DNA of 63,331 bases, counting the filler, from Folioceros fuciformis (Eukaryota), in assembly GCA_049999805.1 (NCBI GenBank). It is 11 parts of 11 records of this genome, joined end to end, with 100 filler letters (N's around TTAATTAATTAA, not from the genome) between each part and the next. Parts side by side here need not be neighbours in the genome. Positions count along the whole stretch, not along the records: positions 47,350 to 50,475 come from JBNGIO010003708.1; 10 more parts are not named here. The stretch is one strand, 5' to 3'. The notes under the pieces were generated by a model that did not search any database, had not been told where the DNA came from, and was given only the letters and a program-made list of their open reading frames with translations. Both the position numbers and the translations under genes were made by a program. Shown piece after piece: positions 4,138 through 60,126 of the stretch (position 1 is its first letter; every line of letters begins with the position of its first letter).

Positions 4138-4311
4138 TGCCTGGCGTTGTCGCCTCTTCGATGGTTGTTCCCCTAGGTTAGACTCTAAGTCGCTGACCTT
4201 TCACGAGGCATCCATTAACCACAACTACCCGGACTTTCTCTCTCCAGTCCGCTCTACACTTCTCCACTTAGCTGTTAGTCACTCCTACCTATGTCTCTAA
4301 CATCTATTCAT

Positions 4312-4329
4312 TCCCCGGCAACGACGCCA
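4312..4329 (-). promoter_or_regulatory. Athila-type (tRNA-Asp) primer-binding site
   Basis: Minus strand TGGCGTCGTTGCCGGGGA a few nt after the LTR end CCCCCACA; one mismatch to the Athila consensus TGGCGCCGTTGCCGGGGA. Confidence 0.8.
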
Positions 4330-4332
4330 AAA

Positions 4333-4973
4333 TGTGGGGGAAAATATTGCACTCAGGGGTGCTGCGAGGTCCACACAAACCCTCTTTATCGTTATAGCAT
4401 TGGGATTCGATCCCAAGGGAATGATATGTCAAATAACACAGGTTTCTTCTAAAAGTCAGTTACTACCTAGGACGGGCTTTAACTACCCCAACTATTTGGC
4501 TACCTTAACCTTACCACGACTCGACTACTACCGTCGCCCCCTCAACTACCTTAACCCTAGGCTACCTGACGGCTTACTCGGCTGCCGGGATGCGTGCCAC
4601 TCCAACTACCATCCCCCAGCTACTTCGTCGCCTCCACGACTACCGCAACACTTATAAATTAGGATCGAGGTGGAAGCGAGAGCAAGCAAGAAGATGTAGA
4701 ATGATAATCTTTACTTTGGCCGTGTGGCCTTAAAAAAAAGACTGAACGGTTGTGTCCTGTGAGTGTGAAGGTACGGCGATTAGTTTTAGGTCGCCGACCC
4801 TTATGTATGTCGCTAGGAATCTACCGGTTCCCATCTAAATATGATTTACTATTTATTAATGCTAGATATATATAATTCTACCAATACTCCCACTTAGCCA
4901 GCATTACCCTAGTTAGGACTGCGAAACCACGGGTTAAGAAACCTCGCCGAAGTTAGGTCTCCAGTTCTCTTCA
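4333..4973 (-). repeat. 5' LTR of the Athila-type Gypsy (distal boundary approximate)
   Basis: TG start at 4333 next to the PBS; its first ~130 bp recur in reverse at about 39575-39707; candidate CA end at 4973. Confidence 0.6.
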
Positions 4974-5441
4974 TGCCCGCCGCCGCTGTTCACAGTCCAT
5001 GGATGAGCTCACAACTGTGATTCTGGTGCTGGCGCTGTTGCTGTGTGCTTGGATTCTTTGATGTTGCCGGCCTTGCGCAGACTACAGCAATCTAGAGAAG
5101 GCACACTCAAGATGGCGGCTGGCGCATGGTTTTTTTACTGCTTGCGCCCAATGCTCCATTCCGATGCCTTACAAACTGCTTCGACAGATTTCATGTATGC
5201 TGGCTGTGACGTCACAGATGATGGTCGGCAAATTCTCCGCTATGGTTTGCTTCTTCAGACTTGCTCTGTAAGTGACTCCTCCTACTAGAGCTTGTGTAGG
5301 ATGCTTTCTGACCTCATACCTTTGTGTTACGCAGAGCCTTGGTGGCGCTGCACCACAGAGATGCCATCCAGAAGGTTTCATCCTTCGTGAAGTGCCACAG
5401 GGTTAGAGTCGAGATGCTAGCTAGGTGGAAGGTTCTGGTAA

Positions 5442-8400: not shown

Positions 8401-9710
8401 TTAATGTTGAGTTGATATAAATCATGGAAAGGTTCTCCTATAGCTAACACGTTGTTCTTGTTTGTAGGGTCAATGACTTGACACTTGAGACCCGTGAAGG
8501 AGACATTCAGAGTGTGCTGTGTGGTCAGCTTACGAACTGACACAAGATTCTTGACCATAGAAGGTACGTGCAACACATCTTCCAACACCAAGGTGGTGTT
8601 GTTACTCAACATAACTGGTACTGACCCGGTGCCCTCTATGTGCAGGCCACTGTCATCTCCAAGAAGAACAAATTGACCGGGTGGAACAGCCTTATACTCA
8701 GTAAAGGACTGCTTGCAATGACAGATGTGAGCAGACGCACCTGAGTCTATAAACCAAACGTGTTTATTCGACGCAGTTGAGACCAAGCATACAGCTAAAA
8801 TGGTGTTTCCCTTACGCTGTACGACATTTGATGCTGGTGATGGTGCAGTTCATCTTGGCTCGCCTGCCTTCTTTTTACGACAATCAGCTTCCCAATGGCC
8901 AGGTATGAGACACCAATTGCAGGGTCCCTTCTTTTTGGCTGATTGTGCTTGTGGTGGACGATTTTTATAACCAGTGTTAAGATTTGGAGTCCAGGACTGC
9001 CTTGGTGGAAATCTTTTAGGACCCCTGTTCGCATGCAGTGCCCTGGTTGAAGATTCTCCTCGGGAGGTGCCACCTTGGTTCACAGTTCGGGTTGACTCTT
9101 CCTCGAGAAGAGCTCCAATTATATCCGCCAATGTAATATCAGGTTGCTGGCCTGGCTGAGCATTCTGGGCTGCATGGCGCAAAGCAGAACTCTGGTTGCT
9201 TACAAACGTGCGGTTGCTGGGAGGAAGAGAGAGAAGGAGGGCAACTGCTGCCTGCATCTCCGTGGTCCTCGTCCCACTTGAGGTAAGATTTGATCGTAAC
9301 TGTCGAAACTTCACCACATGTTGATCCACTGGTTCATTCTCACGCATTTTACAAGTATAGAACGCTCTTGTAGCTCCAACCAGCGATGAGCCGTTGCTTA
9401 CTTGATATGTATGTGTGAGTGAGTCCCAAGCTTCTTTTGTATTCTCCACATCTTGTGTATGAGACATCATTGATCCATCCAATGCGGACTGGATCACTCC
9501 AAGTGCTCTCAGGTCCAGTTTCTCCCAAGCTTCTACTTGTGCAGCGGTCACAGTGGGTCCAGTTGGTTTAGGTACGGTTCCCGTGACAACTCCCCACAGG
9601 CCATTCTCTTTTAGAATTGTCTGGACTCTAAGTGACCAAATATCAAACTGGGACCCTGAGAAGCGGTCCTTGAAATCTATCTTCAGGTTGGTAATAACTG
9701 GAGTGACCAT
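5442..9710 (-). mobile_element. Ty1/Copia retrotransposon B: near-complete gag-PR-INT-RT-RNaseH with a few stops/frameshifts
   Basis: Gag with CNWCLIPGHWEADC (8850-9710), protease WFIDSGAS (8319-8786), integrase CEAC/VHTDLCGP/LRSDNGGEF, RT KARLVARGY and LYVDD, RNaseH DADWA, EAEY, KHIEIKHHFIR; Copia domain order. Confidence 0.95.
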
Positions 9711-9848
9711 GTTTACTATGATCTGATTTGCAAGGGTCGCTGCTACTAACTCAGCTTGCTTCTTACGTGCATCTGCTAGTGCCTTCCTGTGACGTGCTCG
9801 CTGAATGCGATCAAGGGCTGGATCTACTTTAGAAGTGCTACTACCTTG

Positions 9849-10181
9849 TGTGAACCTCCAAAGTTTGGGGTAGTAGTTTGTTTTGGTTGAAAAAGGGTTA
9901 ATAGTGGTATGGTTTGGTTTTCTTTTTCAACTTATTTTCCCTAATTTTCCTTGATTTTCTGGTCATTTTTCCTATTTTTCTTTGTGCTAATTAGATTAAT
10001 TGACCAGGAAATAGTTGGTTTGGTTATAAGAGTGGGTATAGGTTTGGTCCCAGACCTGGGAAGGTTTAGGTTCGGTACCAGGCCATAGGGTTGGGTGATT
10101 AGTTTAATATTAATTTAAAATATATAATATTAAATGATTAAATAATAATATAATAATATTAAATAATAATAATATAATAAT
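9849..10181 (+). repeat. Dispersed LTR-like repeat family X, copy 1 (inserted upstream of Copia B gag, truncated at contig end)
   Basis: Starts TGTGAACCTCCAAAGTTTGGGGTAGTAG; near-identical to 38469-38873 and to the reverse complement of 35812-36188. Confidence 0.8.
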
Positions 10182-14529: not shown

Positions 14530-17213
<2,684 letters not shown>

Positions 17214-17580: not shown

Positions 17581-18966
<1,386 letters not shown>

Positions 18967-19814
18967 CGTGCCTTCGCACGCAGACTGGGTAGCTTTTATC
19001 CGTTTATCTACTGAACGTATATAGCCATGGCGCCCTAGGACAATCCTGCATTCGAGTTCAAGTGTTTTTGTCATTCCTCTGTTCTTGAGGCGAGACGGAT
19101 GTGTCGCATTCTGATGTGCCCGAGCATGCTCGAGAGTGTCGGACTTCATATGCTTGGAAACAGGGTCCCGGCGTTGAAGTTTTGAAATAGTTCACCGATC
19201 TATGAGCCCATCGATACAGTTACCCGAACAGACCAGGTGATGATCCGGACGGGAATGTCTGTGAATGATAAGTGATAAGCCTTAGGGTTTCCGTCGCCGG
19301 CACCCGAGATTCAAGGTGTGCACGTGCCTGAAGAAAAAGGTGTTGGTCTCCATTGCCCACATGGAAACTAGGCGGCGTTTCCCAGTCCACTGACCTCGTT
19401 TGTTCTTGATTTCACAAATGATTAAAGAGGTTTATTATATATATGTATATGTTAGCATTGTTTTTGATGTATATGTGAATATAAAGTAGATGAAGTTGAT
19501 CTTGGGAGTACATCGTGTACATACGTATTTACGTATGTAGTGCACCTCGTCTCCATAGCGTAGGTCTGTACAGGAGTATGGTGGCTGGCCAGTCGGGGCC
19601 GTGTACTGGGAGCTCTCTGCGTNNNNNNNNNNNNNNNNNNNNNNNNNNNNNNNNNNNNNNNNNNNNTTAATTAATTAANNNNNNNNNNNNNNNNNNNNNN
19701 NNNNNNNNNNNNNNNNNNNNNNACTCTAGAATACACTCAAGTGTGTGCATCAAATGGCTACACTGCCAGTGTGCAAAACCCAACCAGGGCAAGGAGAAGC
19801 TAGCTGCAAAGTAC

Positions 19815-21628
19815 CTGTGCTGCGATATCCACTCCAATCTCATCAAGCACCTGCCAAGCACGATTACATGTGACTTCAGTACGCCAATTTTTGTTCCCAG
19901 AATACTCTCACAAATGATCACTTTTGACACTCATAGATTGCTCACCTGATTGGTGAGCTCATCAGTCTCCTCTTCACAGTTGTCNNNNNNNNNNNNNNNN
20001 NNNNNNNNNNNNNNNNNNNNNNNNNNNNNNNNNNNNNNNNNNNNNNNNNNNNNNNNNNNNNNNNNNNNNNNNNNNNNNNNNNNNATATGACATTTCAATC
20101 ACGCTGAGCATAAAGAGCGAACATCATTTTATGTGACCGACTCACAATGTGCAAGGATGGCGTAAAATGGAAGTGAACCGGCAAAACGAATACAAAACAC
20201 ACAGTACCGTCATGTCCATTTGGGCAGACTGCCGTTGAAACTCTTGCATAACTTTAGCCTGTTTGGCTGGTTCCATTTGCTGCAGAACAAGACGGAGTTC
20301 AGGCGTCCATAGGTCTGAGGGAAAACAAGTTTCACATCAACGGTAGCATTAAGGTCACCACACTATGCGATAATGACCTTATTCATAGCCTTTAGGGCTT
20401 TGCCTGCCCCTTCCATGGCACCGGCCACAGCTGTGTTGGTGTACATCGCCTACATCCCCAGAAGAGTCACACATACAGCAAAACAATGTTAGGTTCCAAC
20501 CTAGTAACCCCCTCACACTCAAAACGCTCAAGCACTCTTCTCGCTTGCCAAAGCTATGCAGTTGTGGGTCTATAATTGTCTGAAGACAACTAAGGACCTC
20601 ATGGAATGTCCTAGATCAATCATGTCAGCACCTGCGTGTGGGTTGCAATTCCCCTCATCTGAGCTCTGCTACCCTGCAGCTTGGCAATTTGCTGCCTTAG
20701 CCGGATCAGCTGCCTTGCAAGAATTTTAGCTGCAGCCTGCACGCAGCAACCATTCAGTGAACTCCTCAACCCTTGCTGCAGATTGTGACAACAGCCTGAT
20801 ATCCAGCATTAACTTGAAGCCTCCGCAACTCCAGTTCCCTCACAGTACATTGCATAATCAACTCGCGGTCAAACAGCCATTGTCCCTGTCCTACAAAGAG
20901 GTTCACTCATATGATTCATTGCCCACTCGACCTCGTTCCCAGTCTTGGCTGTTTTCTTAATTTCAGCCACAAGCTTCTTCTCCTGCAAAATCGAGAAAAA
21001 AAGAGTCGTAAGCGTTGCTCAAAAGGTGAAAAGTAAGAGTTTCCATCAAAAGGCACCCATGCACTGACAGCAAGTGTTCAAGGCAGGTGCTAACCTCAAG
21101 CTGCAGCGCTCCTATCTCCCTCTCTATTCCTACGACACGGCATGAGAACCAGTGCCATTGTCAGCAGATAGGGGCACACTTACGAGCTCAATCCACTGCC
21201 AGCTCAGGCAGATTGGCGAACCCTTAGTGTGAGCAAATTTGCACAGTAAACCAACACCAGCCAATGCTTTGATGGAGAAAGCATCATCGCTGAATAACTG
21301 CCAAGCAACCTAGGGCACACACACACAATCAACAAACTGCAGCAGCAACAGTCAGGGCTCAGTCTTATCACCCTAGCTCACCTCTCGTTGCAACAGCCAT
21401 CTCCCTTTTGCTTGTCCGTAAAGCATCTGCCAAATCACCAACACGGCCATCACCACCAAAGTCTCAAAAGGCATCTCAGAAGCCAGGTGAACCCTTGGCT
21501 CTTGCCTCCTGAAGTCAATTGCCCGAGAGCTATCTACAGCTCGGCAACCTTCTCTACAGGACTTCCCGATACGAGGAAGGAAGGTGACAGCACGCACCTT
21601 TAGCGGAGGGCTTTTTGAAGATGTTCAT
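19815..21628 (-). CDS. VPS2: ESCRT-III VPS2/CHMP2-family protein (VPS2.2/2.3-like), multi-exon, 3' end missing at contig edge, part lost in an N gap
   Basis: Hand-spliced exons: MNIFKKPSAK / DALRTSKREMAVATR / GIEREIGALQLE / EKKLVAEIKKTAKTGNE / AAAKILARQLIRLRQQIAKLQGSRAQMRGIATHTQ / AMYTNTAVAGAMEGAGKALKAMNK / EEETDELTNQ / VLDEIGVDIAAQ. Confidence 0.92.
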
Positions 21629-33741: not shown

Positions 33742-34376
33742 GATAGTAACCCCCATAACTGACCTCTTGAAGGCAGCAAAAGCTTGGAGATAAGATGTTG
33801 AGGAACAGGCAGCCTTTGAATACTTGAAGAAAAACTTGAGTACTACTCCGGTGTTGGGAATGTATGACCCCAAGAGAGATGTGGAAGTGTATTGTGATGC
33901 CTCAAATGTGGCTACAGGTGGAGTTTTGATGCAGGACCAAAAGCCGTTAGCTTTTGAGTCAAGAAAGTTGCATCCTTATGAAAGGAAGTATCCCACCTAT
34001 GAGAAAGAGATGACTGCTACCATCCACTGTCTGAAGGCTTGAAGACACTATCTCTTGGGTAGGTCTTTTGTGCTATATACTCATAATATCAGCACGATAT
34101 ATTTCTCAAACCAGTTAAAGTCGAATGTGAGACAAGCTAGATGGCAAGATTTGCTAGCTATGTAGGACATGACTCTTAGATATAAACCTGGAAAAGAGAA
34201 CAAGGTTGCCAATGCGCTGAGTCGTAAGCAGAGTCAAGAAGTGAAAGCAATGGCAACTGTGATTGAACCTTTGGATGCTCACAAAGAGATAAAAGAAGCT
34301 TATTTGCAAGATCTTGAAGTGTAGGACTGAATAAATGGGTGGCAAAGAAAGGAAGCAAGTTCAAACTCAAAGATGG
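33742..34376 (+). mobile_element. Ty3/Gypsy RT-connection/RNaseH fragment (target of two LINE insertions)
   Basis: PITDLLK...VYCDASNVATGGVLMQDQKPLAFESRKL...EKEMTATIHCLK...YKPGKENKVANALSR. Confidence 0.88.
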
Positions 34377-38873: not shown

Positions 38874-38973
38874 NNNNNNNNNNNNNNNNNNNNNNNNNNN
38901 NNNNNNNNNNNNNNNNNTTAATTAATTAANNNNNNNNNNNNNNNNNNNNNNNNNNNNNNNNNNNNNNNNNNNN

Positions 38974-39325
38974 CCACGGTGGTGGAACGACGACGGACGT
39001 TGTGGAACCACCACGGTGGTGGAACGACGACGGACGTTGTGGAACCACCACGGTGGTGGAACGACGACGGACGTTGTGGAACCACCACGGTGGTGGAACG
39101 ACGACGGACGTTGTGGAACCACCACGGTGGTGGAACGACGACGGACGTTGTGGAACCCCCACGGTGGTGGAACGACGACGGACGTTGTGGAACCACCACG
39201 GTGGTGGAACGACGACGGACGTTGGGGAACCACCACGGTGGTGGAACGACGACGGACGTTGGGGAACCACCACGGGAGTGGAACGACGACGGACGTTGTG
39301 GAACCACCACGGTAGTGGAACAACG
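38974..39325 (+). repeat. 37-bp tandem array, about 9.5 copies, open at contig start
   Basis: Unit CCACGGTGGTGGAACGACGACGGACGTTGTGGAACCA starting at 38974, 39011, 39048 and so on; no spacers. Confidence 0.95.
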
Positions 39326-39471
39326 TCGGAGGTAGTGGAATCCACTACCGGTAGTTGAGACCCTACCTCAGNNNNNNNNNNNNNNNNNNNNNNNNNNNNN
39401 NNNNNNNNNNNNNNNNNNNNNNNNNNNNNNNNNNNNNNNNNNNNNNNNNNNNNNNNNNNNNNNNNNNNNNN

Positions 39472-39707
39472 AGTCCGAGGGGTAGTGCAAAGCCACGGTA
39501 GCTGAGTCACGACAGGATAGGGGTAGTTGAACCAGTAGGTAGTGGAGCTGGGGTAGTTGAAGACCGACCTAGGTAGACGCTGACTTTTAGAAGAAACCTA
39601 TGTTACTTGGCACAAATCATTCCCTTGGGATCGAATCCCAGTGCTATAATGACATAGAGGGCTTGTGTGGACCTCGTAGCACCCCCGAGTGCAATATTTT
39701 CCCCCAC
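39472..39707 (+). repeat. 3' end of an LTR of the same Athila-type family (solo or 3' LTR)
   Basis: Reverse-complement homolog of 4333-4490, ending TTTTCCCCCACA; no PBS follows. Confidence 0.8.
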
Positions 39708-43193: not shown

Positions 43194-43652
43194 TTAGACT
43201 TTCTTTCTTGATTTTGATATTAAGTGTCTTGATTGAAACAAGAATCTGTTTCTCAATTTTCTTTGGTTGGACAAAGAAAGTTTGTAAGTGTTCAAGTAGC
43301 TTTGAGATTTCCTGGTACCACTAGGAGATTCTCTAGGCTTTCTTTTGTAGAAAAATGGCACACTATAGCTATTATAACTCTGAGATCTTTTTCGACCAAA
43401 TATACGTATATATTCTCTTTCAATAGACCTAGCAAGGATACTTCTGCATTCTTCAAGAACAACCAACATGAATCGTTTGAAAGGATACTTAGCTTTTAAA
43501 ACATCTCTAAGCATTCTTGTAGGAGGAGTGCGAATGTGTTCATAAAATCTTCTAGAAGGGTCTGAGGATCGGCCAATATACACTCTCCCATTTCGTTTGT
43601 TTACAACCATATAGATCTTTATCTTTTTCTTTCTTGCTCTTGGGAACGGCAT
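43194..43652 (-). CDS. GIY-YIG family endonuclease-like protein, intronless, 152 aa
   Basis: KIYMVVNKRNGRVYIGRSSDPSRRFYEH...IEREYIRIF...SYN matches GIY-x10-YIG with the conserved Arg, His, Glu and YN positions. Confidence 0.75.
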   Translation of the reverse strand: MPFPRARKKKIKIYMVVNKRNGRVYIGRSSDPSRRFYEHIRTPPTRMLRDVLKAKYPFKRFMLVVLEECRSILARSIEREYIRIFGRKRSQSYNSYSVPFFYKRKPRESPSGTRKSQSYLNTYKLSLSNQRKLRNRFLFQSRHLISKSRKKV

Positions 43653-43973
43653 GTAGGTTTTGAATTTTCAAGAAGGATGATGAAATTGCATACATATTTT
43701 GAAATTTCACATGTGCTGATGTTTCCATGCTTGTTGAAACTCGAAGATTTTTTCATTTGTTCCTTCTTCTCTTATTAATATCAATCACTGAATACATGGA
43801 AAGGTGTAATCTAGTTCAAGTANNNNNNNNNNNNNNNNNNNNNNNNNNNNNNNNNNNNNNNNNNNNTTAATTAATTAANNNNNNNNNNNNNNNNNNNNNN
43901 NNNNNNNNNNNNNNNNNNNNNNTCTCTAGCGCGCGTGCGCCTACTACAATCTACTTGCTGTTCATAAACAACA

Positions 43974-46947
43974 GTTGCCAAGTTAATCTCCAATTAGGTG
44001 AATAATTATGTCGAGGGATTGTTGCTGAAAATGCACCTCCTCTCCTGTCTGTTCCAACTTTTCTTCCCATAGCCTTTAGCAACGCTCTTGCCTGCTCATG
44101 TTTTTTCTGCAATTGGGAACACCTGATCCAATGTGTATGTTTTACCATACAGTGCCGTCAACTCTCTAAAAACATCCTCCTTGATATCCTCATCCAGATT
44201 GCAAATGTATTTAAAGCACACTTCCATCTCATTGTGCATCCTTGTATCTGTCACCAACTGGCTAGTTTGATTATAAAACATAAGCGTCGTTTCATCAGGT
44301 TTTCTCTTCAAGTTTGCTAACTCTTCTATCTTCATAGCATTAACTGATGGAAATCTCATTTCCAACCGAATGAAAAATTCTTTCACAGGCTTAGCATGCT
44401 TACTAGTTACCACCAAATCCATAAAACTTCTCAGATAAAATTTGTAAGCATCTCCACACAACAAGTTCCCTAACAAAGTAAATTCATATATAGGATCTAA
44501 TTCCATGTCCTCACCTCCACACTCCTGCAACTTAATCATATAAAACATGCGCATTAACTGATTAATAGACACTGGTGACTTGGGGTGCCCTGAGTACTTC
44601 TCACTTTTCACAGGTAATACCACTCCACCTCTGCCCTTCCTTTCCAACCCAAAAGTTTTCTCAATTGACAAGCTCAACATTTCTGGTCTTCTCATTAGCT
44701 TCCCTACGTCATTTAATTCTCCTAGCTGCCCTTGCACTTCCATAGGTTCCACAGTCCGATTTTGTACGTCCATCACAAGTTCTTTATCTTTGATCACAAA
44801 CCCTCTTTCCTTGCATAAATGCCTCCACTCCTTGTCAGACAGTTGTAGTCTCCCTTCTCTTGCCTCTACTCCTTCAGATGTTTTATGCCTCTTATTTGTA
44901 TCCCCATCAAGATCTGCATTCCCAACTTCTCCCTCTATCTTTCTACCCAAAATACTCGCGCTATGCGAAATTCCTCCCTCCTCATCCNNNNNNNNNNNNN
45001 NNNNNNNNNNNNNNNNNNNNNNNNNNNNNNNNNNNNNNNNNNNNNNNNNNNNNNNNNNNNNNNNNNNNNNNNNNNNNNNNNNNNNNNCCCTTGACGTTTT
45101 CTCCTTTACCATTCAGTTTTGGCCGCCCAACCTTTTTCTTAAATCTCTTGTCCGAACTTTTATCCTCCATCACTCTTTTCTCAACTCTTCCAACTTTTAC
45201 ATTGTCAGTCCCACTTCCCGACTTAGGCAACACACAAGCCCGCCTTACACTTGCTCGCGTCACTCTAATACCCTTGGACATAGGTCTCCTCATGTTAAAA
45301 GTTCAACACCAATTCAATGAGAATTAACACACTAGAGTCTGATAATTTTGACAGCTAATCAAGTCTTACAATGGTTTGTATCCAAACCAACACGGAAATA
45401 GTGTAGAACATACTAGCTCAAAAATTGGATGCCTTGTAACATTCCACACTAAGTTCTCCTCTCCCTCTTTTCTTTCTAAGCACGCCACTAAACTTTTTAC
45501 ATCTGAAAAATGTCTTCCAAGCACTATCAAGTCATCACAAAATATTTTAAGTTGGCTCTAACTACCCGGTCTGGAACACCCTATTATAAGATGTCGCAAA
45601 CTTTGTTGTCTTCTCTGTTTTTCTTCTTCTTCCTCCTTGTTAGGTTCCTGATCCTTCTTCGAAATTTGATCACTCAACTCCTTTTTCTCTCCTTCTGTTT
45701 CCACATCGTTCTTCTTCAGTCCATGCTTCTCAACCCGTCGAACCTCCCCTGCACAACTTCTACCACTCTTACAGTAATAGTATCTCACCAACTATTTCAA
45801 CCTAGCCACTGGCAAGTTCCACTTAATATTTCCAAGCACTTTTTACACACAAAAAAAACTTTAACCTCGCTTCACTCCTGAGCCGTCTCTATGCCGCAAA
45901 CCCTCCCTCATTGCTGCTTCTTATCGTTTTCACACTAGCATAATCAACTACAGCTTCAGATGCAAACTTTTCTAACTTAAGTCTTTTACACCTTCTCACA
46001 TGAAGATTCCCAGTTACTGCACCTTCACCAACCTTCTATTTGGCGAAGCCTCTTTGATACGTCCTTTCCCTTCCAGCTTGATAGCTTGAACTCCTCCTGG
46101 GCGGATCACGTTCATGATAATCTTCCACTCGCCTAAGTCCCTTTGTGGCTTTTCGCTTGCTTCCAACTCCACCTTTCACCTGCGGCGATTCACTCTTTTT
46201 AAGTGGCTGATACTGCATGGTTATCACTTCATAAGCGCCATCCAATTGTCTGCCCTTGAGTGTACTGAAAATAGAAGTCGCTCCCCCTTCAGACGGTAAC
46301 TTTGTAGAAACAATTTCCTCCATCTGACGCCTCTTCTCCACCTCCCTTGTTTGCAAATCCTTCAACAACATTGCAAGCTTGGCCCTTTCCGCCGTTCGCA
46401 CAGCAATCTCTGCTGTGAGTTCTTCCCCTTCATGCTCTGTCTCCTCTCACAACTGCCGCAACTATTTCCTGGAAAACTTGTGTCTGCAATAGATTCCACT
46501 GAATCCGCTCCAGTGTCTACCTCCCGCACTGTCTCTTCCTCCCACCTTGGACTATGCACCTTCGGTCCCTGCTCTATACTCGGCTTGTCCCCTCTTGGCA
46601 CAAACAATTTCGTAACCATTTTCCGCTCATCCTCTGCTAACTCCTTGCTGTCGCCGCTCCCCTCTTGAGATGAAGAACTGTATTTCAGCAACCGCCTCCT
46701 TCTCTACCTTGGCAGCGTTACTGGTAAAACCTCTTCCTACACCAACTCGACGTCTGGTGCTACAAGAACAACTGCCGGAGAAGAAGACTCCACTGGCAGC
46801 GCTCTCTCTTCCTCCACCACACGTGTTGCTGTGAAACCCTCTGTTGGCAACAGACTACCTTTCTCAACTACTTGTGCTGCCGAAGACACCTTCTCCAATA
46901 GTGTGTCTTTTGCTATTGTTGTTGCAACTGTTGAAGAGCCTCCTAGC
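43974..46947 (-). mobile_element. Ty3/Gypsy 5' region: Gag (44096-about 45300) preceded by a decayed extra upstream reading frame; same family as 47350-52760
   Basis: Gag-like LKRKPDETTLMFY...KYICNL; peptide KAMGRKVGTDRRGGAFS (about 44040-44080) recurs as KTMGRKVGTDRRGGVFS at about 52315-52368. Confidence 0.75.
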
Positions 46948-47249
46948 TGTAGGGTTATTAAAGCCCAATGTGCTTAGTCTAATTAGACTAATGTGATTAG
47001 TCTAATTAAACTAGTGTGATAAGTTTAATTAGACTAATGTAATTAGTCTAAGATAAGTGTTTAATTAAGTATCATTAGCTTAAGCTAATCTTCAGGAAGC
47101 TTCCTACATAGCTTCCTGTGAGCTTCTTGTGAGCTTCTTATGAAGCTTCCTTGGGAGCTTTTCTAGAGGGTATAAATACCCTCTTGAGCTCCCTTTGCAA
47201 TTGAGCTGTGAGAGACACTGTGAGACCTCTCTTTCTCCTCTCCTCTCCT
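46948..47249 (+). repeat. 5' part of an inserted LTR with a TATA box
   Basis: Abrupt switch from coding-like sequence to TGTAGGG..., short internal repeats, TATAAATA at 47171, CT-rich tract. Confidence 0.65.
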
Positions 47250-47349
47250 NNNNNNNNNNNNNNNNNNNNNNNNNNNNNNNNNNNNNNNNNNNNTTAATTA
47301 ATTAANNNNNNNNNNNNNNNNNNNNNNNNNNNNNNNNNNNNNNNNNNNN

Positions 47350-49318
47350 CACCCTATCATAGACCTCACAAGTATACGCCTTCTCAACTACATCCATCAT
47401 TCCCTTCCAATAATAACTATTCATGAGCAAACTCAATGTTCTTTTTGTACCAAAATGTCCTAACTCTACATGAATCTTTTTTGCCAAACCCATTCTTTCT
47501 TCAGGTTTTGGTACCACCCTCATGTTATCCTTAAACAACAACTTATTGTCAACCCATACATATCTCCTACTTCGCTTTGTCACCCTATCATTCTCCTTCA
47601 CCGTCGGCGCTTCCTGATTACCACCCATCATCACCCTCTCTAATGTATTCTTATCCTCCCACACATCTACTGGCACCGAAGAAACTCCCAACTCCACCAA
47701 ATTCACTAGATATGCACTCGGTGTCCATCTGGACACCACCAAATTACAGTCAACCCCAGCATTCTTGGCAAAATCCTGCCTGGCAACCTTTGAGTCCTCT
47801 GAACTTCGTAATGGATTCCATGACAACACATCTGCATTTACATGTTTTACTCCCGCCCTATGCTCAATAGAAAAATTATACTCTTGCAAAATAAGTGCCC
47901 ACCATGCTAACTTTCTTGTCAACTTTGCACTCTTCATCAACCACTTCAAAGGCTGATGATCCGTCACCAAATCAAATTTAGCCCCATACAAATAAGGCCT
48001 AAAATGCGATACTGCCCATACCACCATCAAACATTCCCCGTGATATGAGGAATAATTGCTCTCTGTAGAATTGTTACTCCTACTTGAATATGCTACCACA
48101 TGCTCTACCCCACTCTCATCATCTTGCGCCAGCACTGCTCCCAAACCAAGTTTGCTCCAATCTGTATGTAGCTTAAACTTTCTGTCAAAATTAGGTTTTG
48201 TCAATAAAGGATTGCTCATCAAAATGTCCTTTATCTCCTTAAACGCTCTCTGCTGATCTTCTCCTCAAACCCACACTGCATCTTTCTTTAACAACATTGT
48301 CATTGGTTTTACCACCACACTATGGTTTGCCACAAAATTGTGATAATAATTCACCAATCCTAACAAGGAACGCAAAATTCCCACATCTAAAGGTGGTATC
48401 ATTTTTGCTATCGCTTCAACTTTTACATCAGAGGGTGCCGTACCCCTTAGCACNNNNNNNNNNNNNNNNNNNNNNNNNNNNNNNNNNNNNNNNNNNNNNN
48501 NNNNNNNNNNNNNNNNNNNNNNNNNNNNNNNNNNNNNNNNNNNNNNNNNNNNNTGTTCTTCCACACTGCTACTAAAGATTATTACATCATCTATGTAACA
48601 TCTGGTGAATGACAAACCCCTTAGTGCTTGATCCATCGCTCTCTGAAAAGCACTAGGAGCATTCTTCAATTCAAATGGAATAACCACCCATTCCCACAAA
48701 CATCTATTACCCCAAAAGGCAGTCTTCTTCTTATCTTCCTCTTCAATTTCAATTTGATAAAAAACCACCCCTCAAATCCAATGTTGAAAATATCTTACAT
48801 TCACCAATTGCATCAAAAATTTCCTCTGGAGTTGGCATTGGATATCTATATATAGGGGTCACCTCATTAAGCGGCCTATAGTCACCACGCATCCTCTTTT
48901 TTGTCCAATTACCATGCACATCCTTCTTTGGTGAAAGCACCATAGCTACTGCATACTCTGACTCCGAAGACCTTATCAATCCAGCTTTAAGCAACTCTTG
49001 ACACTTCTTGTCCACAATCGCATTTTCCAATTTACTCAAACAATATGGCCTTCTAAAAACCGGTTCAGAAGTTTTAAGCCGAATCTTAAACTTAAACGTA
49101 TTGTGCCTGCCCAATTCCTTATTAGAAAAAGCAAATGCCTTCCTGCTAACTTCCAAAATCCTTACAAAATCCTCCCTATCCTCCAAATTTATCTCATCAG
49201 AAATATCCCACTGAAAATCCATACATTCCTGTTTCTCACATACATTAACCTCACAGCTTGAGCTAGCCACATTCCTAGCTTTTCTTTCTACATCTACAAC
49301 CTCTGCCCCATATCTCAT
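47350..49318 (-). mobile_element. Ty3/Gypsy pol: RT, RNaseH, start of integrase
   Basis: RM.GDYRPLN, FSTLDL, PF.LKNAPSAFQR, YIDDVIIFS; RNaseH LHTDWS...GAVLAQ, TDHQPL; integrase HVELGHFG; Gypsy order RT-RH-INT. Confidence 0.95.
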
Positions 49319-49499
49319 CTACTTACTTTGCTTACCCTCATCACCTAAGACCTCATCATGCGCCCCCATTCTTTTAGTCTCCCCCTAGCGTTTAGACCTT
49401 CATCTCTTCTTACTTTACCTAGACTATGTCCCTCCAACCTTGTGCTTAAAATAACTTTCCACTTTCTCTTGCACTCCTAATAAACTTTTATAGACATCA

Positions 49500-50420
49500 T
49501 AAGCCATCTGACTGTATTTAAATCCATAGCTTGTCCGAGTTTTTTATTCCTCTGCTCAAATGTTATGCCCTCACTTGAGTAGTATTTGTATCAAAACCCA
49601 TGGGAGTTGGCACATCCCACACCTTCCTCTTTGTATCAAATATCATCCCGGGTCCTTCTCCTTTAAACCCATTGGCGCCTTCAAAACTTACAAATGTCGG
49701 CAACGCCCTCCTGAGCTCCCCCTTTTTATTTACACAATAAAAGGGCTGTCTGTCACCTGCCTACTCACTCGCCCCTCATCTAATATCTGGTCAACTATTA
49801 AATCATCATCCCTACGCCACTGACTCACAAGCATCCTCAACAAATGCCTAGGCATCATGTTACTCCAAAAACAGCGATGCCTATGAGCCCTAGATCCAAA
49901 CTGCACTGCATCCAAATTTATAGGCTCACCCAAATAATACTTGATCTCCTCAAAATCTCGCCTCAACACCATTCTTCTATCTATTTGTGAATCCACATTC
50001 TCAATTAAAAAACCACATTCTTTCCTCGAATGCTTTTGCACCAAATTCAAAATCCTAATTAGCTCATAAAATAACACCGACCTATAATCCAACAAGCCTT
50101 TCCCTTGCCTGCCATTGAATGCCCTTGACATTCCCAGCCAGCTATTATCAGATCAATTTCTTCCTCCATTCGAAATTGTGCCAATCCAATAAGCCTAACA
50201 TCCTGAGGTCAAGCAGAAAACGCTTGCATCGCAGCTTCAACCTTTAATTGTTAAGGATAATTTTTGCATAATTTAAAGACCCTTGCCTTCGCAATTGCCT
50301 AACAAACTTCATCTGGATCACAATAAATGTAACGTCTGACCACATATCCAGCAACCAACACAGCCTCTAGAGCAGATGCAATCTCAGCAAACAACTCAAC
50401 CACAACCAATCCATACTCAA
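49500..50420 (-). pseudogene. DNMT3-like C5-cytosine DNA methyltransferase domain embedded in Gypsy pol (stops and frameshifts)
   Basis: Motifs in order: I VVELFAEIASALE, II YIYCD, III QDVR, IV IDLIIAGWECQGHSMAG, VI FLIENV, VIII DAVQFGSRAHRHRCFWSN, IX MGFDTNTT, X QRNKKLGQAMDLNTVRWL. Confidence 0.88.
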
Positions 50421-50575
50421 ACGAACTTAATGTCACAAGTTTATTACACACAAGTTCAAGTTTACAAACTGCTTCNNNNNNNNNNNNNNNNNNNNNNNNN
50501 NNNNNNNNNNNNNNNNNNNTTAATTAATTAANNNNNNNNNNNNNNNNNNNNNNNNNNNNNNNNNNNNNNNNNNNN

Positions 50576-52760
50576 AGCAAACAACTCAACCACAACCAAT
50601 CCATACTCAGACGAACTCAATGTCATAAGTTTATTACACATAGGTTCAAGTTTACAAACTGCTTCCTTTGTACAAAGCTTAATTTTATCATCTAGCTAAA
50701 ACTCAATCTGTCGCTTTTCAAGCTCTCTAAAAATTTCAGCTAATGTTGTACCAACATTTTCTTTCATTGCAATTTCTTCCACTCTGTTATGACTATATTC
50801 CTTTAAGCATAACTTATCCATATGACGCTCCACCACAATTTGTCGTCTTCATCTTCTGCCTCCTGTTCATCCCAAGAAGTCGTCATGTTTACCACACACG
50901 CATCTTGCATGTCTTCATGTAATTGCAACTTAAGTGGAATTGTTGCTACTCTCATTCCTTCACCTTGTTGCGACCCTGGACGATAGCAAAACTCCAATGT
51001 CCATAAGTCCACCCCTTCTCCATGCATGAATAAAGCCTTTGTTCCCAAAATAACATCAAAATTTCCAGACTTGATAATCAAACATTTCATATCAATTGCT
51101 GTCTCTTCTTTTGTCCCAGGCTGCAATTTCTCTTTAGTTTCCCCCATCACTGCCTCCAGACCTCCATTGGCCATCCTTATCTTCCATCTTGTCTCCTATA
51201 TATCTTCCTTTCTCAATCCCATAGCATATGCCGTGCTGAAATGGATCAATGTAGGTTGCGCTCCCGAATCTATCAATACCTTTTCAGGCGCAAAACCTTC
51301 TATAAAAAATTCACACCCACCTTTGTCCAGAAATGCAATTCCTGGTCTAACTTTTGTTTTGTCTCCATTATTTTGCATATTACCATTGAGACAGAGCGAA
51401 ACTGTCTTGCTTGGCTTTTCACTTGCATCAGGACACTCTACTGTCACGTCCTGCAAAAGTTCTCGAATTTTTGACTCACTCACTCCTACTTTGATGCCCA
51501 ATTCTAACACACTTCGGATACAACCAATCACATCACTATGAGACACCTGCGTTCTCTTACTCACTTGCTTTTCCAACACCTTCACTGCTCTGCCATCTTC
51601 TCACTAGAATCTTTCATATCCACATCTAATACTTCAAATGATTGCGGGTACTTCCAACCTGACACCGCCGATCTTCCATGGTCTTTATGCTGACCTTCCA
51701 ATCTTGTGTTGTATCTTTTCTGAGCAACCTCTACTTCCAATGCATCTCCCCTATGCACCTCATAAACAAATGCATCCAGCTGAAACTCCTTGTAGGCTTT
51801 CTCCTTCTCACCCAAATCCTTCCTTTTTTCCATTGTCCTAACCTCCTTGATTTTAACTCTGCCATTCTGGCCACCAGTTGCCTTCAACCTATCAATCTCA
51901 GCCTTCAAGTCTACTATATGCAACTCTAACGATTTGTAAGATTTGCTCATCCGACCCAAATTATCTCCACTAGCTCCTCCAAATCTATTTTCTTCAGCCC
52001 TTTGCACCTGTCTCACATTCGTAACACTCTGCTCCTTAAAACCAAACTTTGTGGGCTTGAGAGATGGATACTTCTGCCAACAAACTTTCTCCAAATGTCC
52101 TTTCTTTCCACAATGATTACACCCTACAACCCTCTTAATTGAACACTCCATCATCACATGAGAACCACTCCCACAACACAAGCACTTTATTCCTTTTTCT
52201 GTCTCTACATTCATGACGGGCTTCATGTACCCGTTGTCCACCCTTGACATGTTTGATTGCTGCTGCCAAGTTGGTCTACATTTAGGCAGAAAATTCTATC
52301 GAGGCACTGGCACTGAAAATACACCTCCCCTTCTATCTGTCCCAACCTTTCTTCCCATGGTCTTTAGCNNNNNNNNNNNNNNNNNNNNNNNNNNNNNNNN
52401 NNNNNNNNNNNNNNNNNNNNNNNNNNNNNNNNNNNNNNNNNNNNNNNNNNNNNNNNNNNNNNNNNNNNTCTGACCACCAGCTGCCTTCAACCTATCATTC
52501 TCAGCCTTCAAGTCTGCTATCTGCAACTTTAACGATTTGTAAGATCTACTCATCCGGCCCAAATTATTTGTACTGGCTCCTCCAAATCTATTTCCTTCAG
52601 CTCTCTGCACTTGTCTCACATTCTTAACATTATGCCCCTTAAAACCAAACTTTGTGGGCTTGAGAGATGAATACTTCTGCTAACAAACTTTCTCCAAATG
52701 TCCTTTCTTTCCTCAATGATTACAACCTACATCCCTCTTAATTGAACACTCCATCATCAC
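50576..52760 (-). mobile_element. Ty3/Gypsy Gag C-terminus (two zinc knuckles), aspartic protease and linker running into MTase motif I
   Basis: CLCCGSGSHVMMEC, CNHCGKKGHLEKVC, VLIDSGA, FDVILG; 50576-50665 reads ...YGLVVVELFA; 52469-52760 is a diverged duplicate of about 51867-52160. Confidence 0.88.
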
Positions 52761-53578: not shown

Positions 53579-54919
53579 TCAATTGCCATCAATCTCCACA
53601 TCTTCACGAATGCTAGCCAACCTTATATCTTGTTTCATAAATTGTGGTTTGCTTTCAATATCGTGTGCCATGTTGTCCATGCTTTGCACATATTGTTGCA
53701 TTTTCTTGTCACTGGTGAGATGAGAAAAATCCATAGGAGGTAACAAATCCTGGAAGAAATCTGGCAAAGTTGAAAGGTTTGCACCAAGACTTGACAATGG
53801 TGCCCGGTCTTGCTTCTTTTCACTCTTCTTCTTGAAATGCATATCTCTACGTGAGATGACTTTGGGTGCAATCATTTTTTTGTTATGTGTGCATTGAGAC
53901 AAAAATGCTAGACGCATTGCATCATCTAGGGATTGTGGACGTGAATATGAAAGATCTGCTTGGACTTCTCTTTTCAACCCTTTTATGTATCTCTTGACCT
54001 TCTCATCCTCTATGAGCAATGGTATCCTCATGGAAATCTCCCAAAACTTGCTGTTATATTTTTTGATGGACCTGGTATGTTTCAAGGTAGACAACTCGCT
54101 TCGTGCTTGCTCTGTGTAATTTGGAAGGCACTTCTCCAGCAAGTATATTTTGAAATCTCTCCACGACGTGACTTGTTCCCGTTCACTGTGATCAACTGTG
54201 CTTTCTCGATATCTCCATATTGTAAAAGCTCTTCCTTTCAATTGCATTGATGCACAGCGTATTCTCTGTGCACCATATATCCCAAGCGCATCCAAATATG
54301 TCTCCATTCGATCTATCCATGTATCGAATATCTCAGGATCTCTCTCCCCACCGTAACTTGGAAGTTCAATGTTATCCCATATGTTGGATTGATAATCCTT
54401 GGCTACCTTATTGAGAAAATTGAAATAAGCGTCCGACTCATCCAAGTCTTCACCATCAAGCTCCTCCCCGTCAGGCTCAAAAGTCTCTCCCCTCAAATCT
54501 GGAGTAATCAAATCCCTAGCATCTTCATCCGGGTGCCTATCATGAAAGATTTTATTCAAGCTACGGTAGTGTGACCTCCTCAATGCAACCAAAGCACTCT
54601 TAGCTTTGTTTACGTATTCAGAAGGCATGAAAAAATTCAAAACTGCTTCTGTAAATTGAGCCCAAGTACAAATGGGTTCTCTTTCTCTTCTGGCTGCACA
54701 TATCTTGACATAACGCCACCAAGTATGTGCGTAGTCTGTGAAGTGAAATGAAGCAAATGGAACTCTCTGCCAATCGGGAGTGAGCTTTACTGCAAAAAAT
54801 TGCTCCATTTTGCATAACCAATTTTGCACCACTCTAGGATTTCGCTCGCCATTGTATTTAGGAAGATCGATCTCAATAACGTAGTGTCCCCAGCCTTTGG
54901 TGTTGTATTTGCAAAACAT
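53579..54919 (-). CDS. Intact retrotransposon Gag-derived protein with a duplicated capsid N-terminal domain (446 aa)
   Basis: Two repeats, IDLPKYNGERNPRVVQNWLCKMEQFF...W..F and IELPSYGGERDPEIFDTWIDRMETYL...W..F; MHR-like LKHTRSIKKYNSKF and YIKGLK...PQSLDDAMRLA after the second. Confidence 0.8.
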   Translation of the reverse strand: MFCKYNTKGWGHYVIEIDLPKYNGERNPRVVQNWLCKMEQFFAVKLTPDWQRVPFASFHFTDYAHTWWRYVKICAARREREPICTWAQFTEAVLNFFMPSEYVNKAKSALVALRRSHYRSLNKIFHDRHPDEDARDLITPDLRGETFEPDGEELDGEDLDESDAYFNFLNKVAKDYQSNIWDNIELPSYGGERDPEIFDTWIDRMETYLDALGIYGAQRIRCASMQLKGRAFTIWRYRESTVDHSEREQVTSWRDFKIYLLEKCLPNYTEQARSELSTLKHTRSIKKYNSKFWEISMRIPLLIEDEKVKRYIKGLKREVQADLSYSRPQSLDDAMRLAFLSQCTHNKKMIAPKVISRRDMHFKKKSEKKQDRAPLSSLGANLSTLPDFFQDLLPPMDFSHLTSDKKMQQYVQSMDNMAHDIESKPQFMKQDIRLASIREDVEIDGN

Positions 54920-57767
54920 CTTACAATGCTACAAGAATTTCATCCATCTTAATAAATAACTCGGGCGCTGATAGGAGTGTAGCTTTTTGTATCCCAAGCA
55001 CCCGGACGCCCATGGTCCATAACCATGCGCCAGGGGGGGGGAACTTCGTTGGGTTTGTGAAAGCAGCGGGCATCAGGAGGGCGGCCCATGAGATGGGAGT
55101 GGGTGGAGTCTGACCTAGATAGTACACAAGAGTAATGGCTACACTTCGCTGTTCCAGATTTGCGACCACCTGAGGTTTAGGGGAGACGTTGGCGGCTTGT
55201 GGAGAGTTGTTAGTTTGACGTGGTACGCGGGACAAGCTTCCAGAAAAAGCGACTTCACGTGAGGCCAAGAGCCACGCGAACACCAGTGGCAGGAGCACGC
55301 TCCTGCTCCACAGATCATCATGGCGGGGCAACAAAGCACAGATTTCTCGTGCTACAGGACACGCCCGCTTCGCAGGCATGCACACAACAAGCGAGCCGCA
55401 TGCCGCACGCAGCACGCGGGGCGGCGTCATCTTCGCTGCTCATTCCAGATCCTGGTGTTTCGCACAATGGCAGCACCGCATCTCCGCTCCTTGTCGCCCT
55501 GCCCCTGCTCGGCATTACCTTACGGCCGCTCTTTCCATGTCAGCAGCCAACTGGTATTTTGGTGCTGCCTTTACCAGGATGTGGCAGATGGACTTCCTCC
55601 ACCTATCGCGTGGAAACCAGCCTTTCCTGCTGCTGTGGAGGGGTGCTGGAGCTGCTTGCAACCTGTGCCCTCACGCTTGACGCTTCGTGTTTGACAGATG
55701 CACGAAGATGTGAGCTGTTGTGCTCGCTCGCAGGTATGTACTTGCACAGGGGTACACCCAGCAAGGCAAGCCAGCAAGCGTAGCATGCAATAAGTGTTGG
55801 CGCTCCCGGAAAGTGCTGAAATGCTCCTGCTTTTAAGTTCGCCTCCACTCCTATGATATAAGCTATGCGCAAGCTTCACATGGTCCACCACTCATTACTG
55901 CTGTGCAGTCCGCTGTAAAGTGTCCTGGAAAACTGTCTCCCCGCTGGGACCCGGCAGTACCTGGAACATGAGAGCCTCCGCAGCAGCATGACATCCAAAG
56001 GTACCTCGCAAGGTATGTCTGCTAGTCCTTGCTTCCCCTGGCTGCGCACATATTATAAACCGTAAGCCGTAAAGTCGTCGGATGGTAATCTCTGCTTCAG
56101 CTAGCTCCCATGTGCTAAAGAAAACCCTCCATCTTCTTACTGCGATGGCACAAAAAAGCATGCCAATGCAATGAGGCATCCCTGACAAAATGCGCCAAAA
56201 GCAGCAAAAGTGGACTCCTCCACCGTCTTTCTCTGGTTGGAGCTGACGTAAGAGGATGAGCGAAGCTCAACTACGACTCTCCTGTGGATAAAGGGGAAGC
56301 GCACACTTTTCAGCTGGATTTCACTTGCCCGTTGGCATACTTCAAGTCTGGACACCGACATTGCCGTGATCGAGGAGGGTGGGTCTGACCTCTGGACTGT
56401 TTAGGAGGGTATCTTTGGTGGAAGCCCCTCGCTGCTGACCGCTGATGCTCGTCCCCGCTGTTTGCCTCTTGCCCTCACTACTGATCAGCTTGCTGCTTCG
56501 TCAGTCATGCACCTAGGGATTGATTAAAGGTGGCCTGCATTTGGACAACACTTCGTGTCCTTTCGTGTGTATTCAAGTGTCAGATTCGCCAATACTTTCA
56601 GTCTCGAGCATCTGGTCCTTCTTCAAAACCAATTGAACTGGTGATTCAGTGTTGTTACAACGAAGCTGCCCTCGAACACGTGGATTTTCTAGACTCAGGC
56701 AACTCAGCCGGGTCGCCTGCATCACCGTTGACAAAGAACGTACGAAGAGATATGGCCAAGTCCACTACACCTGGAACAAATGCCGGTTGAGCGATCCCTG
56801 AAGCTCGAGTGTATACCCCGTGGAGGAATCAGATTGGAAGCTTGCCTTCATGCCAGGACAGACTGATGAGCTCCGCCAAATCAAGTGTTACATCCCAGAG
56901 GCAACTTCTCCTCCCAATGAATCCAAAATTAGCCGCGAACTCCAATGCGTTGCCACAGCTAAAGCCTATCTGCACAAGATGACATCCTGAAACTGACATC
57001 GTCAGCTCAAAATCCAAACGACAACTAGATAACGCATCTTCCCATTGTTTACACTTTGGATTCTGAAGTGCAAGGGCATTACATGCAAGGGAACGACTGT
57101 TACAAGCTACAACAACTGACCTGTATCATTTTTCAGAGAATCGCTCTATCGTAGCCTCTGTTTGAGTTCAGTATTTCCCTTGAGTTAGAAGGATGTACAT
57201 AGAAGTAGACATAGTCATGAGCTACACAAGCTAACTTCACATCTTTCAGACCAATGTGCTCGAACATATGCAACACCACTTCAGTATTGGCTTCTAAAAT
57301 AACTTGTCACCCTAACCATCTGACGATACGCAAAAGTCTAACAGAAAGGGAAGACCTGCACATAGGTAGAGATCTAACGGCTTCAGAAAAAGTTTTCTAT
57401 CATAGCCTTCACCAAGCAATCCGTCCTGACATCCACTGTGGACCGTCCGTGTCTTCCAGCTGGGATCCGCAGTGCTTAAAGCATGATCTTTGCAGCAGGA
57501 TGACGATACGAGATAACTCGCCAAGAAGGAGGCAACACAAGACACATCTGCCCGATACCCGTTATCACGTACAGACTAATAACCTTGCTGTGAAGCCGGA
57601 GCCACATCATCCCTCATGAGCTAGTCTCTACGTATGAGGGCAAGCGCTCGAACTAGCCATCAGCTCACTGGGTGAACAGAAAAGTATGGATTCCACTACA
57701 GTGAAGCAGGGCTAGCAGTGCAACAAAAGCAGGAGAGCTAGACCGCTCCACCTTCCATCTCTGTGGG

Positions 57768-59640: not shown

Positions 59641-60126
59641 CTAGTCTTCCTCCTCCACAACCTTAGTTCCCAGGTTGGAAAACCCAGTCTGAGGAACCTC
59701 AGCAGCGGTGACATACGAGTACAGCTCTTCCTTGGCGTCCTCGTCGTCGTTGCGCTTCCTGGCGATGCGCACACGAATTCGAGTAGGCACGTTCCTCACG
59801 CCCCGGCTCCAAATGTGTTTGTTCAGCTTCACATCCAGTCTCACGTCAGTGGTTCCCATGGCCTTCTGCGCGAACTTGCGGATCTCCTTCACGGCCTTGG
59901 GGGCCATCTTCTTGAAGGTGCTGCAAGCAGACAGGCCGCATGTCAGCACCGAACAGGCATCCGGAGACTGCAGCATGAATTGCCACCTGCTGCAAATGGG
60001 ATTCCGCGAACACAACGAAATCATTTGAGCAATAGAAACATACCAGCCATGTAGCCGCTTATGCAGATTGATAGTGTACTCCCGCGTCACGACCTCGTTC
60101 GATCGCTTCTTCCCCTTCTCGATCAT
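59641..60126 (-). CDS. RPL31: 60S ribosomal protein L31 (eL31), one intron (about 59921-60043)
   Basis: [17 protein letters not shown] / [17 protein letters not shown]...[34 protein letters not shown]. Confidence 0.97.

Follow-up and report, generated by a model that had tools for sequence, protein, structure and literature searches.

Retrotransposons that carry a DNMT3-type cytosine methyltransferase invert the usual picture, in which the host methylates the transposon. The closest described system is KnitGypsy-Dnmt3 of the charophyte Klebsormidium nitens, which, in those parts of the report of de Mendoza et al. (2018, PMC5890265) that deal with it, is an intronless DNMT3-related domain that is not rearranged as in DRM and that lies inside the Pol open reading frame (ORF) of a streptophyte Gypsy long terminal repeat (LTR) element present in many copies. 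SymbioDIRS-Dnmt3 of Symbiodinium, as described in the same parts of that report, likewise has a DNMT3-type domain in a retrotransposon Pol, but its backbone is of the DIRS type, with a tyrosine recombinase, and its host is a dinoflagellate; the authors regard it as an independent capture. Here, we analyze a 63,331-nucleotide (nt) stretch of DNA from assembly GCA_049999805.1 (the whole stretch is called the window below), which very probably holds a decayed copy of a high-copy Ty3/Gypsy family that carries a DNMT3-like C5 methyltransferase between protease and reverse transcriptase (RT) in gag-pol.

Elements of this kind are already published for a charophyte (i.e., K. nitens; PMC5890265, in the passages on KnitGypsy), as the first-pass annotation of this DNA had stated, and the window represents a distant lineage in a new host. 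Its element resembles KnitGypsy-Dnmt3 in all the features named above and differs from it in the host; the likeness is drawn from the published description. A 2025 paper (PMC12344493) and a 2026 preprint (10.64898/2026.05.21.726589) cite K. nitens as the only streptophyte case, and according to a 2019 opinion paper (PMC6338049) land plants lack elements of this kind. Our literature search, which covered few subscription journals, turned up no published account from land plants or from Closterium. The window thus adds a distant and abundant lineage, at most 45% identical to any protein match of its longest unbroken methyltransferase piece (124 amino acids, aa), in a streptophyte whose prolyl-tRNA synthetase (ProRS) groups with land plants, and homologous elements in green algae come in two fixed domain orders. 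Should the host be an embryophyte, the loss of such elements at the move to land could no longer be assumed, and the host methylome would offer a test of the enzyme's action.

A DNMT3-like methyltransferase domain lies within a Gypsy pol region

Translation of the minus strand recovered all six motif strings (I, IV, VI, VIII, IX, and X) that the first-pass annotation had listed (Table 1; motif coordinates were counted by hand from the translation), in canonical order and spread over six colinear pieces in three frames. The stops and frameshifts that it had mentioned could likewise be mapped, i.e., three frame changes (near 50098-50104, 49733-49760, and 49566-49571) and three in-frame stops in the first third of the domain (50299-50301, 50251-50253, and 50209-50211). 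Ahead of motif IX, six residues of the family profile also have no counterpart in the window copy. Because of these frame changes, in-frame stops, and missing residues, the window copy is dead and cannot make the enzyme. It retains the catalytic Cys, the ENV string, and the R-x-R...W-x-N of motif VIII, and the Cys and the Glu-Asn are invariant or nearly so among relatives. The domain had further been placed on the same contig as the RT, and positions 48554-50475 indeed form one N-free run that carries both the methyltransferase and the N-terminal part of the RT; the contig at 50576-52368 carries the beginning of the methyltransferase together with gag and protease.

To assess homology, we used a profile (A3) built from 23 relatives. 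Its positions 104-441 were matched by six colinear pieces of the window (40.1, 4.0, 39.1, 143.6, 52.7, and 16.4 bits); no comparable match to this profile was found anywhere else in the window. When the 124-aa piece was compared by phmmer with 1.84 billion representatives, 340 proteins matched at E≤1e-3, of which 64 reached E≤1e-10; the top match had E 2.6e-20 and 45% identity. The same piece had no match at E≤0.001 in a word-index search among longer proteins, which is explained by the sensitivity of that search. The protein atlas gave PF00145 for 30/30 feature matches, with no informative taxa, and the Pfam PF00145 profile matched two adjacent window pieces, each below its cut-off (13.4 and 14.5 bits; profile positions 48-79 and 81-157).

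Comparison with solved structures bore out the label "DNMT3-like" of the first-pass annotation. All 29 matches of the 124-aa piece (phmmer, E≤10) were DNMT3A, DNMT3B, or DNMT3C (best E 0.0013), and the N-terminal piece, with X at stops, gave one unrelated match among solved structures (E 1.8). The family profile ranked DNMT3A first (1.3e-23, 86.7 bits), followed by DNMT3C, DNMT3B, plant DRM (1.4e-12), and M.HhaI (7.8e-9), and had no match to DNMT1 among solved structures at E≤0.01. Moreover, it aligned to DNMT3A (2qrv_A) in three colinear stretches (residues 9-55, 69-210, and 245-286), and the domain is therefore not permuted as in DRM. Score ranking, as opposed to phylogeny, thus supports a domain closer to DNMT3 than to other C5 methyltransferases. 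Relative to DNMT3A which, with DNMT3B and DNMT3C, is the sole (mammalian) solved-structure match, the window domain has no PWWP or ADD, shows Glu-Cys in place of Pro-Cys in motif IV, has a longer stretch between motifs VIII and IX, and is embedded in a polyprotein.

Around the domain, the window follows the Ty3/Gypsy Pol order of protease (PR), RT, RNase H (RH), and integrase (IN), with the integrase present as its zinc domain only. The region is colinear by tblastn with residues 798-1936 of P0126, a natural single ORF of 2188 aa that, according to Pfam, comprises zf-CCHC (530-547), protease (796-888), PF00145 (978-1226; 46.1 bits), RVT_1 (1421-1575), RNase H (1638-1766), and integrase (1895-1949 and 1967-2061), the last with both its zinc domain and its core. 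The match to P0126 residues 1469-1936 spans the 100-N gap onto 47350-48453. The proposed gag-PR-methyltransferase-RT-RH-IN architecture is upheld by this colinearity, the integrase core and the LTRs not being in the window. The RT has a frame change near 48760, where other copies vary in length. Pfam zf-CCHC gave no match at E≤1 for the ORF at 51582-52295.

The window consists of small scaffolds chained by ten linkers (44 N + TTAATTAATTAA + 44 N, with stops in six frames) and is also cut by ten 100-N gaps and one 10-N gap, giving pieces of ~0.3 to 11 kb; adjacent pieces are not necessarily neighbors in the genome. The contig ends at 50386-50475 and 50576-50695, which face each other across such a linker, overlap by 90 bases at 94% identity, and therefore derive from different copies or alleles. 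The 3' end (43976-44080) of the fragment at 43923-44987 matches 52264-52368 (78% over 105 bases); the ORF within it (44096-44986) has no Pfam match.

Table 1. Features of the element, its surroundings, and host genes in the window
Feature	Position (nt)	Strand	Basis or remark
Rest of RT, RNase H, integrase zinc-binding domain	47350-48453	-	PF17917 1.3e-35, PF17919 1.9e-32, PF17921 3e-8
RT, N-terminal part to YIDD	48554-49318	-	PF00078 E 4.6e-10; tblastn P0126 residues 1314-1469
DNMT3-like C5 cytosine methyltransferase domain, motifs I-X	49480-50475	-	Translation, Pfam, structures, family profile, tblastn P0126 residues 974-1183
Motif X, R..LGQA	49528-49551	-	
Motif IX, MGF	49593-49601	-	
Motif VIII, AHRHRCFWSN	49859-49888	-	
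Motif VI, ENV	49994-50002	-	
Motif IV, AGWECQG	50122-50142	-	
Motif I, VELFAEIA	50377-50400	-	
Start of methyltransferase domain, to ...VVVELFA	50576-50695	-	Same frame as upstream protease ORF; weak family-profile match
Aspartic protease region (LIDSGAQ)	50803-51600	-	tblastn P0126 residues 798-923 E 1.3e-6; weak Pfam gag-asp_proteas E 0.068
gag C-terminal part, two CX2CX4HX4C zinc-knuckle strings	51582-52295	-	Read by eye in translation
gag fragment of further copy	52469-52760	-	91% identical to 51866-52157
Likely gag capsid-like fragment, other copy of same family	43923-44987	-	Suggested by overlap and same strand skew
Artificial linker	47250-47349	.	Second linker bordering the element
Artificial linker (44 N, short sequence, 44 N)	50476-50575	.	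Between two element scaffolds
100-N gaps	48454-48553 and 52369-52468	.	In or next to the element
Cytoplasmic ProRS, nearly complete	14533-17018	-	About nine tblastn segments against reference
CFIm25-type Nudix exon	near 18200	+	
RPL31e	59644-60075	-	One intron after ...INLHKRLHG

The methyltransferase is shared by a high-copy family in the same sample

To determine if other copies of the family carry the domain, contigs of three runs of one sample (X1, X2, and X3) were compared with 47350-50475 at ≥80% likeness in 30 bins. All 30 bins were covered in each run, by 652 (X1), 586 (X2), and 986 (X3) look-alike contigs; in X1, 93 of these were at ≥99% likeness, 159 at 95-99%, 208 at 90-95%, and 192 lower. 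The summed word depth in X1, which is not a copy number, was 213-452 in the ten methyltransferase bins and, with the gap left aside, 114-425 in the RT/RH/IN bins. Since the look-alike contigs cover the methyltransferase as fully as the RT, the domain is family-wide, i.e., it belongs to a high-copy family and is not a one-off capture. The first-pass annotation had held that copies without the domain would speak against its proposal; what we found is hundreds of same-sample contigs that cover it. At each of the three methyltransferase frame changes, or next to it, some other copies differ in length (by 1, 10, and 1 letters, respectively), and these differences imply that the breaks are private to some copies. 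A fourth run (X4), guessed to be RNA, yielded two partial contigs at <90% likeness and is uninformative on expression.

Run X3 differs from the other two in a further respect. At 19 listed places (among 40 listed of 761 differences), it has A at full depth where the window has G, and X1 and X2 show <5% A there (mostly 0). All 19 places are minus-strand CHH cytosines, against a background of 227 CHH, 69 CHG, and 44 CG, and the chance of 19/19 CHH is (227/340)^19, or ~5e-4. X3 resembles a library that underwent chemical conversion of the bisulfite type; if it is one, there is a hint that the CG and CHG sites of the element family are unconverted, i.e., methylated, and methylation data for the host may already exist.

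Related elements come in two fixed domain orders

Many of the protein matches are polyproteins of 1000 to 3225 residues, and the 150 that were listed are either of the transposon type or fragments. We scanned with Pfam 28 long proteins, chosen by length from the 150 matches listed, and found PF00145 (E≤0.001) in 22/28, RNase H (PF17917 or PF17919) in 22/28, RVT_1 in 20/28, the integrase core (rve) in 19/28, and a PHD finger in 14/28. Open relatives show, as judged from their reading frames, a DNMT3-type domain that would be translated within one gag-pol polyprotein, between protease and RT. Two fixed orders were seen among the listed matches (MT, methyltransferase): PR-MT-RT(-RH-IN), which is that of the window, and RT-RH-MT-IN, often followed by a PHD finger. 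PR-MT or MT-RT was observed in P0126, P0131, P0133, P0142, P0158, P0161, and P0164, and likewise in P0196, P0213, P0225, P0232, P0258, P0265, and P0271.

The named PR-MT-RT members among the listed matches are all from Closterium, whereas the named RT-RH-MT-IN members are from Scenedesmus, Haematococcus, and Monoraphidium; K. nitens did not appear among the named matches. P0126 and the Closterium proteins GJP34393.1, CAI7886383.1, CAI7850249.1, CAI7859113.1, and CAI5990913.1 share the order of the window and its side of the tree, but they are only 37-43% identical to it in methyltransferase high-scoring segment pairs and 38-42% in RT-RH-IN, and their frames are open where the window copy is broken. 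The chlorophyte type, e.g., the "pol" protein KAF8056149.1 of Scenedesmus, has a homologous methyltransferase in a Gypsy pol and shares the strings LPQDV, AGWECQ, and AHRxRNFWTN, but carries the domain after RNase H and not before the RT.

In a quick tree of 84 methyltransferase segments (no outgroup, SH-aLRT support only), the two domain orders were set apart by a single change. More specifically, all 42 RT-RH-MT-IN rows fell in one clade (support 96) that excludes the window, and the window piece fell in a 23-row set (support 96) made up of eleven PR-MT-RT rows, eleven rows too short to be assigned an order, and the window itself.

As a side observation, RT-RH-methyltransferase-integrase-PHD Gypsy polyproteins of chlorophyte or metagenome origin number 188 at E≤1e-5 (P0134, P0152, P0171, P0191, and P0287-P0392), and no paper describing this order was found in the literature searched.

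A scan of metagenome contigs gave 80 further loci, many of which match P0126 across the methyltransferase into the RT. Their protein identity to the window is ≤40% over the long methyltransferase piece and ≤50% in RH-IN, which rules them out as close relatives; at the DNA level, likeness is confined to short RT and RNase H stretches (65-73%). No LTRs were detected in the related loci L002, L022, and L007. A 45.7-kb metagenome contig, L027, has direct repeats of 85-90% identity at 5246-5793 with 19683-20119 and at 6973-7272 with 15726-16025; these long repeats, which flank and lie inside a related element, could represent LTRs of copies nested in one another.

The host is a streptophyte, and its ProRS groups with land plants

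The host genes in the window offer a placement of the genome. For RPL31, the top scores were those of seven eL31 chains (127-140 bits), which we take to be from plant ribosomes, and the next group scored ~105 bits. Among the 120 matches listed for a ProRS exon, the best named one (72%) came from the lycophyte Diphasiastrum, and a protein without a name reached 88%; no named protein of K. nitens, Closterium, Marchantia, or Physcomitrium was among these 120, and one match (P0073) belongs to the same 90% cluster as the Physcomitrium enzyme. A 498-residue ProRS model assembled from the exons shared 72-77% identity with land plants, compared with 70% for Chlorokybus.

In a quick ProRS tree, the window fell in a clade with a liverwort, the moss-cluster protein, lycophytes, ferns, and seed plants (SH-aLRT 98), adjoining the liverwort Calypogeia (support 90). 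The comparison was made without named Zygnematophyceae, Coleochaete, or Chara. A constrained topology that grouped the 27 land-plant rows and left the window outside was 5.77 log-likelihood units worse (approximately unbiased [AU] test, p-AU 0.059), the land-plant group for this test having been named after the tree was seen. The host is a streptophyte and is neither K. nitens nor Closterium. On these protein comparisons it is probably a land plant, and a late-branching streptophyte alga would be a somewhat unlikely host. As to the embryophyte host that the first-pass annotation had raised, with ProRS and RPL31 named as the check, the grouping of ProRS with land plants stands, and the exclusion of a place just outside them does not, as such a place is not rejected (p 0.059).

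Alternative explanations and the proposed role of the enzyme

Several observations weigh against a methyltransferase-bearing Gypsy family of this host. Element scaffolds are joined to host genes via artificial linkers only; one linker ends the element at the integrase zinc domain, which leaves the integrase core outside the window, and no repeat pair that could represent LTRs flanks the element in the window, where the element ends run into linkers. Each PF00145 piece alone is under the 22-bit gathering cut-off, the pieces having been scored singly and not as a joined read-through. Motif IV reads ECQ and not PCQ, ECQ being the majority reading in the aligned relatives. Motif I reads ELFAEIASALE in the window versus ELFGGxxAGLE in relatives, and does not conform to the glycine-rich S-adenosylmethionine (AdoMet) loop (F-x-G-x-G); the second fragment that covers it (50576-50695) also reads ELFA, and the cofactor loop may, on this reading of the two fragments, have been lost in the lineage of this host. 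Finally, KnitGypsy-Dnmt3 gave no detectable methylation in yeast, a result that its authors call inconclusive in the part of PMC5890265 that reports it.

The state of motif I bears on the possibility that the domain is kept in the host lineage as a non-catalytic module, e.g., for DNA or chromatin binding, with the cofactor loop lost. Its glycines are gone in 2/2 covering fragments, but both fragments come from decayed copies, the aligned relatives retain the glycines, and the window copy keeps the catalytic Cys, ENV, and the R-x-R...W-x-N signature, so that we consider this explanation unlikely. The linkers and gaps bear on another one, namely that the element derives from an associated or contaminating green alga, and not from the genome with ProRS and RPL31, and that the two were combined by scaffold concatenation. 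They cut the window so that no piece joins the element to a host gene, the base make-up of the element differs from that of the host-gene parts, and all named relatives are algal (Closterium in the same order; Scenedesmus, Haematococcus, and Monoraphidium in the other). Against this stand the two element scaffolds, which follow each other in the expected order and orientation and whose ends overlap, an arrangement that suggests placement on a longer reference with a full copy at this spot; the hundreds of look-alike contigs in each of three runs, with depths of 6-22 for the X1-X3 records among 26 listed of 2267 matching pieces, which is much for a minor contaminant; and the fact that no sequenced alga comes closer than 45% identity. 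An algal source thus appears quite unlikely. A one-off capture of a host DNMT3 gene fragment by a single copy, or an assembly chimera, could be suspected given the single readable copy of the domain in the window and the very fragmented assembly. However, the look-alike contigs cover the domain as fully as the RT, the same domain order recurs in independent natural ORFs of other organisms, and the closest matches are transposon-borne (E 2.6e-20, versus 0.0013 for DNMT3A in a much smaller library). We regard such an event as extremely unlikely, and, with same-sample contigs covering the domain and two further gag fragments in the window, as not tenable.

For the methyltransferase-bearing family, a role can be outlined for working members. 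Their polyprotein would place the enzyme next to the RT, within or close to the particle in which the DNA copy is synthesized; the enzyme might then methylate the new DNA of the element or the insertion site, and such methylation would shape how methylation-based silencing by the host treats the element. Self-methylation of retrotranscribed DNA is also the model in the relevant parts of PMC5890265, which note purifying selection on the KnitGypsy-Dnmt3 domains; two SymbioDIRS-Dnmt3 domains brought about de novo CG methylation in yeast (de Mendoza et al. 2018, PMC5890265, same parts). By analogy with these systems, self-methylation may be the function in working members of the window family, although we hold this with some doubt.

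The element is depleted of cytosine on its sense strand

The sense strand of the element is composed of A 0.315, C 0.115, G 0.293, and T 0.277, with a CpG observed/expected ratio of 0.43. Cytosine at third codon positions (C3) is at 0.04-0.09 in five element ORFs (0.06 for the family in the window), compared with 0.17-0.20 in the other transposon ORFs of the window. Across 44001-52000, the plus-strand GC skew is about -0.43 in all but one of four bins, the exception being at -0.33. Among related metagenome loci with ≥400 aligned codons, C3 was below G3 in 42/44, loci that are kin, come from few samples, and are not independent; the medians of these 44 loci were C3 0.14, G3 0.32, and T3 0.34. 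A strand-specific C to T loss in the replication cycle would fit the C3 deficit, and its link to the element's own enzyme is speculation. The combined proposal that the host is a land plant, that this is the first such high-copy family in embryophytes, and that the C3 deficit is a trace of the family's own enzyme on one DNA strand is possible, but we advance it tentatively.

Other features of the window

In addition to the genes in Table 1, the host-gene parts of the window contain HAUS2 exons and a ubiquitin-family ORF. Other transposons, whose spans are given jointly (1323-9926 [-], 33743-34240 [+], and 53579-54928 [-]), comprise a Ty1/Copia element with gag, Pol_BBD, integrase, and RVT_2; a separate gag-protease ORF with a zinc knuckle; a gag ORF of the Ty3 capsid type; part of an RNase H from another Gypsy element; and two zf-RVT ORFs. 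Rfam gave nothing at gathering score over the whole window. Just past a linker from the element, a 157-aa ORF at 43194-43667 (-) has a GIY-YIG nuclease domain (E 3.5e-8), a match that was assigned to this ORF by reading its sequence. The stretch at 38918-39597, which borders a linker and a gap, can be read through in several frames of both strands (ORFs of 129-223 aa), which suggests a stop-free simple repeat.

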